Positions 58,064-58,217 of a stretch of 61,809 nucleotides of DNA are shown here, piece by piece. The first letter of the stretch is position 1. Every line of letters starts with the position of its first letter. The notes under the pieces are model-generated. The model made no database searches. It worked only from the letters and a program-made list of their open reading frames with translations, and was not told the origin of the DNA. The DNA is from a virus (lineage: Duplodnaviria > Caudoviricetes): positions 1 through 61,809 of IMG/VR virus record IMGVR_UViG_3300012232_000012; one strand, 5' to 3'. Made by a program: the position numbers and the translations under genes.

Positions 58064-58217
58064 GAGCATCGTGCTGGTGTGCTATTACGCCAAAGGTTTC
58101 CCGTAAATCAGCGCCCTTCATCGCACGCTGTCTGAACGCCGTGTCGCTTTCGACGGCCCGGTACTCCCACTCCTTAGATGGTGGCTGCTTCTAAGCCAAC
58201 ATTCCAGCACGATGCTC
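58064..58217 (-). ncRNA. 23S rRNA H43/H44 (GTPase-associated centre, L11-binding) mimic RNA with 78-nt insert
   Basis: AUGUUGGCUUAGAAGCAGCCA (58202-58182) and GCGUAAUAGC (58090-58081) match 23S 1057-1077 and 1091-1100 as I recall them; closed by a perfect 14-bp helix. Confidence 0.85.

Follow-up and report, generated by a model that had tools for sequence, protein, structure and literature searches.

The stretch of DNA analyzed here (the window; 61,809 nt in full) is a virus record that is 96% complete. The phage is described as a sediment phage and is small and without tRNAs. On the minus strand, positions 58064 to 58217 reproduce positions 1051 to 1108 of E. coli 23S rRNA, a region that comprises the top of H42, H43, and H44 of the GTPase-associated center and is the smallest fragment of it that binds uL11 and thiostrepton, and this element lies next to a tRNA-like domain on the same strand. 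The features of the element and of the predicted unit around it are as follows.

58333 to 58361, minus strand: sigma-70-type promoter-like site (TTGCCT, 17 nt, TAGAAT; 9 of 12 consensus positions), a prediction
58288 to 58303, minus strand: 5' hairpin 1, a GUAA tetraloop on a G/C stem of 6 bp, from the fold only
58211 to 58286, minus strand: 5' hairpin 2, with stems of 20 bp (outer) and 6 bp (inner) and a 16-nt loop rich in pyrimidines
58204 to 58217, minus strand: 5' strand of helix P1, with its inner 5 nt in register with 23S 1051 to 1055 (top of H42)
58178 to 58202, minus strand: copy of H43 (23S 1057 to 1081), holding the A1067 loop (A1067 is position 58192)
58169 to 58177, minus strand: junction 1082 to 1090, with the C1082-G1086 pair and then G1087, A1088, G1089, and U1090
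58091 to 58168, minus strand: 78-nt insert after U1090, a predicted Y shape with the UUUG linker at its end
58078 to 58090, minus strand: copy of H44 (1091 to 1100; A1095 is position 58086), then A1101, C1102, and A1103
58064 to 58077, minus strand: 3' strand of P1, pairing with 58204 to 58217 to form a nonribosomal closing helix
57994 to 58061, minus strand: tmRNA-like tRNA-like domain of 68 nt, 2 nt downstream of the mimic
57945 to 57990, minus strand: intrinsic terminator (A-tract, 12-bp stem, U-run)
57919 to 57947: second promoter-like site with the same -35 hexamer, after the terminator

The element was compared base by base with the E. coli rrn operon (locus L120). The 21-mer at 1057 to 1077 and the 10-mer at 1091 to 1100 are identical and lie in the same order in the element, confirming against the real operon the two identities that an earlier note on this DNA had claimed; the minus-strand layout quoted there, including the 78-nt insert, is exact. 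Helix order is shared with the ribosomal center, the pairs 1057-1081, 1058-1080, 1082-1086, 1087-1102, and 1091/1092-1100/1099 persist, as do A1067 and A1095. In contrast to the ribosomal center, the mimic is free-standing and phage encoded, H42 below 1051/1108 is an unrelated helix, the insert and the UUUG linker are added after U1090, and position 1101 is A and not U. H42 proper, which is the uL10 site, is replaced in the element, and therefore the uL11/thiostrepton module alone is retained. The element is thus a sequence and secondary-structure mimic of the uL11-binding domain of 23S rRNA.

A real rRNA gene or fragment, or contamination, was ruled out. BLAST against 5,426 E. coli genomes aligned 38 nt of the window, all within 23S rRNA, and Rfam gave no LSU rRNA match in the window at the gathering score or in the 1.5 kb around the element up to E 10; therefore, as had been proposed, no further rRNA flanks the element. 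Environmental 23S rRNA contigs match 58168 to 58202 and then continue as true rRNA, with divergence at 58168 and 58202. The C1082-G1086 pair and the GAGU at 1087 to 1090 are the letters of ordinary environmental 23S rRNAs. The compensatory changes that the earlier note took as a sign of selection in this phage are thus common bacterial rRNA states and do not carry that argument. The real evidence for selection is covariation across the family and not the differences between the window and E. coli.

The perfect 14-bp nonribosomal helix described previously is present, and it lies at the register of the family, but its outer 7 bp compete with upstream hairpin 2, the last 7 nt of which (58217 to 58211) double as the outer half of the 5' strand of P1. 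Two conformers of the fold were predicted, one at −136.3 kcal/mol with the 14-bp P1 and the other at −136.8 kcal/mol with hairpin 2 whole and a 7-bp P1. Direct repeats of 7 nt bracket hairpin 2 and the mimic.

A covariance model (R1) for which 38 other members, and not the window, were used matched the window at 58070 to 58211 over model positions 1 to 170 of 170 (99.7 bits; E = 7e-25), and this was its sole match in the window; the real E. coli 23S rRNA scored 51.1 bits. Because R1 was built without the window and matches it end to end at this E value, a chance origin is excluded. The same architecture is repeated in many viral contigs, with the family pattern found in 44 viral contigs versus 4 contigs, all of them MAGs, among 185,579 species genomes. 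P1 occurs at one fixed register (6 nt before G1062 and 3 nt after C1100) in 74 of 120 motif occurrences, and the window shares it. The UUUG linker and the ACA at 1101 to 1103 are conserved at 90% or more in the family, and both are present in the window; the A at 1101 is family specific, with U found there in rRNA. Among aligned members, A1067, A1095, and both of their loops are invariant (the 5' loop was part of the search word, and the 3' loop was not), as is GCGUA..AGC in the H44 copies. Some members carry a second hairpin at 1078.

The helices of the family covary. In alignment A1, 98.7% of cells are paired versus 74.1% in shuffles, and the covariation score is 0.560 versus 0.127, with 0 of 500 shuffles as high. 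All 8 counted pairs of P1 covary, a helix of at least 4 bp having been the selection rule. Across 39 members, pair 1058-1080 is GC in 15, UA in 15, AU in 7, and CG in 1; pair 1057-1081 is AU in 32 and CG in 5; and pair 1082-1086 is UA in 21, CG in 10, AU in 3, and other in 5. The earlier note's view of the element as a selected stand-alone mimic and not debris is borne out by the virus-specific family of fixed architecture, by this covariation, and by the family-specific departures from rRNA. The element is a member of a large, virus-specific family of stand-alone noncoding RNAs whose folded insert after U1090 differs by lineage, and the RNAs of this family probably imitate the ribosomal uL11/GTPase site off the ribosome.

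The family is linked to tRNAs. It is often seen in large phages that have tRNA arrays, and in cultured phages it goes unannotated; in one of these, Pseudomonas putida phage pf16, the element lies between tRNA-Asn and tRNA-Pro (110.2 bits). Of 66 member loci, 49 contain tRNAs; in all 49, the nearest tRNA and the element share a strand, and in 32 they are no more than 100 nt apart. Directly 3' of 30 of 37 pattern matches lies a canonical tRNA, the identity of which varies, and tmRNA genes occur in 3 of 16 member loci; in one of them (L092), the distance downstream from the element is 42 nt. The best 150 of 155 Rfam matches in these 16 loci are all tRNA, tRNA-Sec, tmRNA, or RNase P. In the window itself, ARAGORN found 0 canonical tRNA genes.

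The mimic in the window appears to have a frame of its own, composed of the promoter-like site, the 5' hairpins, the tRNA-like domain, and the terminator. Two promoter-like sites were found in the region versus 0.7 expected, with a transcription start predicted near 58327; recurrence of the hexamer pair (3 sites versus 0.46 expected) is marginal. The terminator fold (−24.4 kcal/mol; z = −5.2) was matched in stability by 0 of 200 shuffles, and it was missed by the pattern scan because its loop exceeds the limit of that scan. A 160-nt contig from an RNA library spans 58143 to 58302 with 1 difference, which is a weak hint of expression that could also be DNA carry-over. In the RNA run, uncovered parts of the stretch are uninformative, and the 35 nt that resemble 23S rRNA collect the rRNA of other organisms.

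The tRNA-like domain (−35.1 kcal/mol; z = −2.5) shares with tmRNA a G3.U70 acceptor stem, discriminator A, a D-loop analogue that lacks a stem, and a T arm, and it does not encode CCA. Where the anticodon arm or tag part would be, there is a 9-bp stem capped by a tetraloop, so that a 24-nt hairpin stands in for about 300 positions of the tmRNA model. The domain scored 26.9 bits (E = 1.3e-8 in the 1.5-kb search) against Rfam tmRNA, for which the gathering score is 47, and its ends resemble those of the phage tmRNAs that adjoin other family members. In contrast to tmRNA, it has no pseudoknots or tag reading frame, is below threshold, and lies 2 nt behind an rRNA mimic; a full tmRNA was rejected on the first three of these grounds. 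A tRNA was rejected because there is no 7-nt anticodon loop and no D stem, and ARAGORN called neither a tRNA nor a tmRNA at the domain. The tag frame is reportedly likewise absent from the reduced tmRNA of jakobid mitochondria (PMC3590771). In some constrained folds, the arms of hairpin 1 pair instead with both acceptor strands of the tRNA-like domain. A pattern search for a second example of the domain gave 1 match, which was unrelated. Searches of viral sequences, metagenomes, and member loci found no homologue of the tRNA-like domain, of the 5' hairpins, or of the 7-nt pairing competition, and the roles suggested for these parts therefore rest on one sequence.

The insert was predicted to fold into a base helix, which is broken by an internal AGUA/GAAA loop, and two hairpins, A (its core is CGAAAGCG) and B. 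When the unit was compared by BLAST with the collected member loci, it matched the shared core and, in addition, locus L075 (68% over 163 nt), with which alone this insert type is shared; hairpin A differs between the two by one C-G to A-U exchange. The AGUA/GAA loop occurs in 4 of 90 inserts (shuffle mean, 0.7; maximum, 4) and is absent from L075, the sole relative with the same insert type. Under a loose pattern, a sarcin-ricin-like hairpin occurs in 2 of 90 inserts (shuffle mean, 0.56; maximum, 3). With both counts within the shuffle range and the loop lacking in L075, a general role of the insert as a sarcin-ricin mimic is unsupported.

Viruses copy tRNAs, tmRNA, and some ribosomal proteins. 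Cellular ribosomal-protein operons have mRNA leaders (for example, the L10 leader and the L1 site) that act in cis and resemble rRNA loosely, and these are likewise RNAs outside the ribosome that imitate an rRNA protein-binding site. The mimic, in contrast, is a near-exact copy, is viral, has its own terminator, has no ribosomal-protein gene downstream, and gives no Rfam leader match. An autoregulatory leader of this kind was rejected, since a terminator follows, the ORFs neighboring the element have no ribosomal-protein family match, and the record has no uL11 gene. ROOL and GOLLD are noncoding RNAs of phages and prophages that are often near tRNA genes, but the core of the mimic is a copy of an rRNA domain, and rRNA mimicry is unmentioned for ROOL and GOLLD in the accessible part of the source (10.1101/2024.12.08.627333). 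ROOL, GOLLD, and the leaders gave no Rfam match in the window, and neither ROOL nor GOLLD is among the best 150 of 155 matches in the 16 member loci. No family in Rfam 15 corresponds to a phage mimic of the GTPase center, and our literature search found no paper on one; the accessible part of PMC10690425 names no rRNA-like candidate, and its supplementary lists may still hold the family. No earlier report that we found describes a near-exact, free-standing copy of a functional rRNA domain.

Taken as a whole, these results are best explained by a processed, stand-alone mimic of the GTPase center that acts as a decoy for host uL11, a reading that we put forward tentatively and with somewhat less than even confidence. 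The identity to 23S rRNA, the R1 score, the covariation, the restriction to viruses, the linkage to tRNAs, and the lack of a phage uL11 gene (0 of 50 carrier records; control, 14 of 14) count in its favor, as do the framing by promoter-like site, tRNA-like domain, and terminator and, as a weak hint, the RNA-library contig. The count of uL11 genes also led us to reject the mimic as a partner of a phage-encoded uL11. The tmRNA-like domain, promoter-like site, terminator, and tRNA-array context, which are additions to the earlier note, altered our view of the production of the RNA. A precursor of roughly 380 nt would be transcribed from its own promoter and would carry, in order, the pair of 5' hairpins, the mimic, a 2-nt spacer, the tRNA-like domain, and the terminator. 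RNase P may cut where the tRNA-like domain begins, thereby freeing the 3' end of the mimic, a release that the neighboring tRNAs would bring about in other members. The stable RNA would then take the GTPase-center fold off the ribosome and bind host uL11, or other factors that recognize the site, as a decoy. Ribosomes poor in uL11, and hence a blunted RelA-dependent stringent response during infection, are a possible consequence; processing, uL11 binding, and physiological effect are all steps that we infer. The isolated 58-nt domain reportedly binds L11 tightly (Draper, Wimberly, and Conn laboratories). Against the decoy reading are the A for U at 1101, the insert at 1090/1091, and the second hairpin at 1078, the latter two at sites that, going by the structures as we understand them, could lie near the uL11 or tertiary-contact surface. 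Titration of uL11 from tens of thousands of ribosomes would also need tRNA-like abundance, and the nearest helicase relative (47% identity) is without the element. The accessible part of PMC1919483 held nothing usable on uL11 contacts.

It is possible, though unlikely, that the RNA is instead a sink that draws off agents attacking or modifying the GTPase-associated center, with the A1067 and A1095 loops as substitute targets that spare the ribosomes. Candidate agents are Tre23-type ADP-ribosylating toxins, thiopeptides, and the rRNA nucleases or methyltransferases of abortive-infection systems or competitors. The invariance of both adenines and both loops among aligned members, with the 5' loop in the search word, is consistent with such a sink, as is the sarcin-ricin-like hairpin in 2 of 90 inserts, but these hairpins are rare and, for the loose pattern, not above shuffles. 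Placement among phage tRNAs suits the logic of counter-defense RNAs. A precedent at H44 is Tre23, which ADP-ribosylates 1095 to 1098 and blocks the GTPase of EF-G, according to the accessible part of PMC8661411. A stoichiometric decoy, however, is a poor answer to a catalytic toxin. We know of no anti-phage system aimed at this site, and the literature search yielded none. Were the tRNA-like domain the working part and the mimic of the GTPase center a passenger, the RNA would be a tag-less mini-tmRNA, charged with alanine and bound to SmpB and EF-Tu, that would disturb trans-translation or take its place. The G3.U70 pair, discriminator A, stemless D-loop analogue, and T arm, the full tmRNA genes adjoining members in 3 of 16 loci, and the known reduction of tmRNA in jakobid mitochondria (PMC3590771) speak for this possibility. 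We consider it quite unlikely given the score below threshold, the negative ARAGORN result, the single unrelated match to the domain pattern, and the fact that tRNAs of any identity adjoin other members, which fits a generic role in processing.

A sponge for translation factors, in which the RNA, alone or with host uL11 and a phage protein with a bL12 motif, captures translational GTPases or RelA, is distinctly improbable. Such a protein may be encoded in the window: a 94-aa protein (1956 to 2240, minus strand) has a match to the bL12 C-terminal-domain motif PF00542 that is below the cut-off of 25.9 (20.2 bits; E = 7.7e-4), and its sequence matches in the PDB are bL12 only, at E values of about 0.8 to 0.9 that are not significant alone. 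PF00542 is above the cut-off in 10 of 10 scanned relatives (of 47 found), and among 50 other carrier records it is found at an E value of 0.001 or less in 5, 2 of them above the cut-off; the latter two counts cover only phages that carry the RNA. The sarcin-ricin-type AGUA/GAAA loop at the base of the insert also fits a sponge, but the one relative that shares this insert lacks it. bL12 binds uL10, whose site in H42 is not copied, and isolated GTPase-center RNA is not, to our knowledge, able to hold GTPases stably. A composite is very unlikely, namely, that the 380-nt transcript imitates the whole factor entry site (copy of the GTPase center, sarcin-ricin-type loop, and alanine-accepting tmRNA-like domain), forms a particle off the ribosome with host uL11 and the bL12-motif protein, and traps GTPases, RelA, or defense toxins that are EF-Tu dependent or directed at the center, with the 7-nt competition as a switch for folding or processing. 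That the element is a neutral remnant, either a captured host 23S fragment or a selfish mobile cassette of no use to the phage, is extremely unlikely. Up to GAGU, its 5' half has the same letters as ordinary environmental 23S rRNA, the closest helicase relative lacks it, and 7-nt direct repeats surround hairpin 2 and the mimic. However, non-rRNA features are fixed across the family (the insert site, UUUG linker, A1101, and P1 register), helices are maintained by covariation, the spread is wide yet restricted to viruses, and the nearest tRNA is always on the strand of the element.

If the RNA binds uL11, as the decoy reading holds, or other factors that recognize the site, phages would have in it an RNA with which to adjust the factor-binding stalk of the ribosome or the stringent response. 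Since the family occurs in the cultured phage pf16, the question is directly testable. With the window, a small, tRNA-less phage is added in which the mimic comes with a predicted promoter of its own and a tmRNA-like stub, an arrangement that suggests that tRNA-type processing contributes to the production of these RNAs. An N4-like identity of the phage, guessed from a 3316-aa ORF, is unsupported, as this ORF has no PHROG match at 1e-5. Helicase searches returned 3 viral loci and 6 metagenome loci, the latter at 41% identity or less. The downstream 148-aa protein has a 70%-identical relative, P0002.

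The minus-strand element at 58217-58064, which the earlier note had quoted exactly as it reads in the window, was compared with an E. coli rrn operon (L120). All 21 bases of 23S 1057-1077 (H43 and the A1067 loop) and all 10 of 1091-1100 (H44 and the A1095 loop) are the same in the mimic, bearing out the identities claimed for it, and the two blocks follow the E. coli order. The inner 5 pairs of the closing helix, a non-ribosomal helix enclosing the copy, are in register with 1051-1055/1104-1108; thus, the copied domain is the classical 58-nt uL11/thiostrepton-binding fragment. 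A stretch of 78 nt interrupts it after U1090, and unrelated sequence replaces the remainder of H42. As had been stated, no further rRNA flanks it: Rfam gave no match of any kind in the whole window at gathering score and no LSU match up to an E value of 10 in the surrounding 1.5 kb, and BLAST against 5,426 E. coli genomes gave an alignment limited to 38 nt. In both sequence and secondary structure, the mimic copies the uL11-binding module almost exactly, with the uL10 site absent.

C1082-G1086 had been taken for a compensatory change, an interpretation that did not survive. Real-rRNA contigs in four public runs match 58168-58202, beyond which they run on as true 23S: GAGUG leads straight into the H44 hairpin, and UCAC and the H42 strand come next. 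Since ordinary 23S shares this segment, C1082-G1086 and GAGU are both normal bacterial states and did not arise as compensations in the phage. The mimic departs from rRNA at the site of the insert, in having a UUUG linker and A1101, and in its closing helix; the evidence for selection lies in the pattern across the whole family.

The 16-mer of the A1067 hairpin is present in at least 118 IMG/VR contigs, and nearly all occurrences read in context are other than 23S rRNA. Members share a layout of H43 flank, 1082-1090 segment ending in GAGU, highly variable insert, UUUG, H44 hairpin, ACA, and closing helix. About 10 of 119 occurrences (e.g., loci L035, L047, L049, L087, L088, L109, and L118) show none of the family flanks and resemble chance or coding matches. 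Under strict criteria, with the closing helix required to reach 4 bp or more at a single register, the H44 motif and closing helix were present in 74 of 120 occurrences, the window counted; these represent 67 distinct sequences. Those of up to ∼205 nt, minus two near-duplicates, were aligned (39 of the 67), and the structure counted for covariation was set by hand from rRNA numbering. Paired cells amounted to 98.7% in this alignment versus 74.1% in shuffles. The covariation score was 0.560 versus 0.127 in shuffles, with 0 of 500 shuffles as high and slid controls at or below 0.154; for the closing helix, covariation is partly circular because pairing there was the selection rule, while that rule did not touch pair 1082-1086 or the base pairs of H43. 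Covariation, and not the neutral decay set against it in the earlier note, was thus found in the homologs. Across the 39 members, the 1058-1080 pair is GC in 15, UA in 15, AU in 7, and CG in 1; 1057-1081 is AU in 32 and CG in 5; and 1082-1086 is UA in 21, CG in 10, AU in 3, and other in 5. The A1067 and A1095 loops are invariant in the aligned members, the 5' loop being part of the search word and the 3' loop independent of it.

The 38 other members were used to build a covariance model, which matched the window element end to end (99.7 bits, E value of 7e-25) and found no second copy in the whole window. The real E. coli GTPase center scored 51.1 bits and L073, a minimal viral copy without an insert, 51 bits, so the family-specific parts contribute about 48 bits. 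These results confirm the earlier observation: the window element genuinely belongs to a virus-specific RNA family, apparently undescribed, whose members copy the uL11-binding center of the ribosome. Full-text literature searches and Rfam 15 yielded no phage RNA of this type, and such an RNA goes unmentioned in passages of the ROOL/GOLLD cryo-EM preprint (10.1101/2024.12.08.627333) and of a 10,000-candidate viral RNA survey (PMC10690425).

The family is confined to viruses and constantly co-oriented with tRNAs. A pattern of the 5' hairpin followed after 90 to 120 nt by the family-specific 3' half occurred in 44 viral contigs and, with one genome per species for 185,579 prokaryote species, in 4 contigs, all of them MAGs scoring 92 to 98 bits on the family model. 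Among 66 distinct member loci, 49 contain tRNA genes; the nearest tRNA lies on the strand of the mimic in all 49, at a distance of up to 100 nt in 32 and up to 500 nt in 41. A pattern demanding a T-loop 45 to 75 nt behind the mimic returned 37 loci, 30 of which have a canonical tRNA, of varied identity, that begins 8 to 26 nt past the conserved 3' core. Rfam analysis of 16 member loci gave, among the 150 of 155 matches listed, only tRNA, tRNA-Sec, tmRNA, and RNase P RNA, with none on the mimic itself. In mimic-bearing viral contigs, the matches included the following:

L002 9376-9703: bacterial-type RNase P RNA (263.7 bits), in the tRNA island
L036 4045-4349: full tmRNA, in the tRNA island
L045 8864-9133: full tmRNA, in the tRNA island
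L092 8163-8535: full tmRNA, in the tRNA island, starting 42 nt behind the mimic

Cultured phages also carry copies, without annotation: Xanthomonas phage XbC2 in a 283-nt intergenic gap (85.4 bits), Erwinia phage Kaldavass (L182 599-844; 85.7 bits), and Pseudomonas putida phage pf16 between tRNA-Asn and tRNA-Pro (110.2 bits). Two further IMG/VR records scored 88.9 and 88.2 bits. Matches to the 5' core were listed for about 20 further large phages, and also for short records that are host rRNA. The XbC2 copy (L181 1499-1744) has G at the A1070 position of the otherwise invariant A1067 loop, and part of the mimic RNA of Kaldavass is covered by a CDS annotated as a "hypothetical protein".

The window record is a 61.8-kb virus from freshwater sediment, 96% complete, with genes for a terminase, a DNA polymerase, DnaB-type and SNF2-type helicases, and a thymidylate-synthase-like protein; no tRNA gene was found in it. 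For a 3316-aa ORF (15888-25838, plus), identity as an N4-type virion RNA polymerase is unsupported, as a PHROG match at 1e-5 was absent. No genes occupy the part of the minus-strand early or replication block where the mimic is located; its features are these:

58361-58333, minus: predicted sigma-70-like site (9 of 12 consensus positions)
58303-58288, minus: GUAA-capped hairpin (predicted fold)
58286-58211, minus: long hairpin (predicted fold)
58217-58064, minus: mimic, then two U residues
58061-57994, minus: tRNA-like domain, 68 nt (Rfam tmRNA model)
57990-57945, minus: strong terminator (−24.4 kcal/mol, z −5.2)

Here, the mimic has its own predicted promoter and a tmRNA-like stub. A 160-nt metatranscriptome contig spanning 58143-58302 with one difference gives a weak hint of transcription; alternatively, it may represent DNA carry-over. 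A second promoter-like site (57919-57947, minus), sharing its −35 hexamer and 17-nt spacer with the first, lies directly past the terminator and ahead of a 148-aa ORF (57484-57930).

The closing helix, described earlier as a perfect 14-bp helix, is perfect on paper, but its outer 7 nt are contested, since its first 7 nt coincide with the final 7 of the long hairpin and folding with the rRNA-like core enforced gave two conformers of −136.3 and −136.8 kcal/mol. The domain is predicted to be closed by at least 7 bp in either conformer. One 7-mer on the minus strand occurs directly at 58280-58286 and 58211-58217, flanking the long hairpin plus mimic, and inverted at 58064-58070, with mutually exclusive isoenergetic pairings; these repeats may serve as a switch or in processing, or be left over from an insertion. 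The insert has a Y-shaped predicted fold, and its type recurs only in locus L075 (68% over 163 nt), where hairpin A differs by one C-G to A-U exchange. Its base helix contains a loop, AGUA/GAAA, of sarcin-ricin type or loop-E type that L075 is without; such a loop occurs in 4 of 90 family inserts versus 0.7 in shuffles. Two of the 90 inserts (L046 and L092), among the longest in the family, contain a hairpin closely resembling the sarcin-ricin loop (AGUAC, GNRA-type loop, GGA).

The alignment of the tRNA-like domain to the Rfam tmRNA model skips about 300 model positions; its 26.9 bits (E value of 1.3e-8 in that search) fall short of the gathering score, 47. The acceptor stem reads G1-C72, G2-C71, G3·U70, G4-C69, an A·C mismatch, U-A, and G-C, with A as discriminator. 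The remainder consists of a D-loop analogue lacking a stem, a hairpin of 9 bp capped by a tetraloop, and a T arm of normal form; the domain has no tag frame, pseudoknots, or encoded CCA. Its ends are similar to those of phage tmRNAs adjoining other members. An alanine-accepting mini-tmRNA, working in a role of its own, is a less likely reading of the domain. Because members elsewhere adjoin ordinary tRNAs of any identity, the simplest reading is that the domain is a processing signal: RNase P cleavage at G1 would generate the 3' end of the mimic. In L121, the nearest helicase relative, which is without the mimic, an unusual tRNA-like sequence (∼4255-4345; 7-bp acceptor-like closure and T arm) lies ∼190 nt upstream of the helicase gene.

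The isolated GTPase-center domain binds uL11 tightly, and RelA activation requires uL11. Once released, presumably by tRNA-processing enzymes, the mimic RNA would fold like the GTPase-associated center and bind host uL11; withdrawal of uL11 from ribosomes would then dampen RelA activation. Such a uL11 decoy is a tentative proposal, to which we give slightly less than an even chance. A phage-encoded uL11 was rejected as the partner, as PF00298 was found in none of 50 records, of which 20 have a completeness of 90% or more, and in 14 of 14 controls. The RNA might instead be a sponge for factors or a sink for agents that attack the GTPase-center site; a known attacker is Tre23, which, according to passages of PMC8661411, ADP-ribosylates H44 at 1095-1098. 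That the element is a neutral remnant is opposed by the large virus-restricted family, the covarying helices, and the fixed non-rRNA features, which uphold the earlier view of a selected mimic rather than debris.

A 94-aa ORF of the window (1956-2240, minus) contains one copy of the helix-turn-helix motif of the bL12 (L7/L12) C-terminal domain. PF00542 matched it at 20.2 bits (E value of 7.7e-4), below the cut-off of 25.9, and its two PDB sequence matches, both bL12, are insignificant alone (E values of about 0.8 to 0.9). Among other carriers of the mimic RNA, PF00542 was found at E values of ≤0.001 in 5 of 50 records and above the cut-off in 2, counts that come from carriers alone and make the pairing of protein and RNA a lead, not a link. 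An exhaustive search with the ORF collected 47 proteins at E values of ≤0.001, the window's own included, most with the motif repeated, and all 10 distant relatives scanned scored above the PF00542 cut-off.
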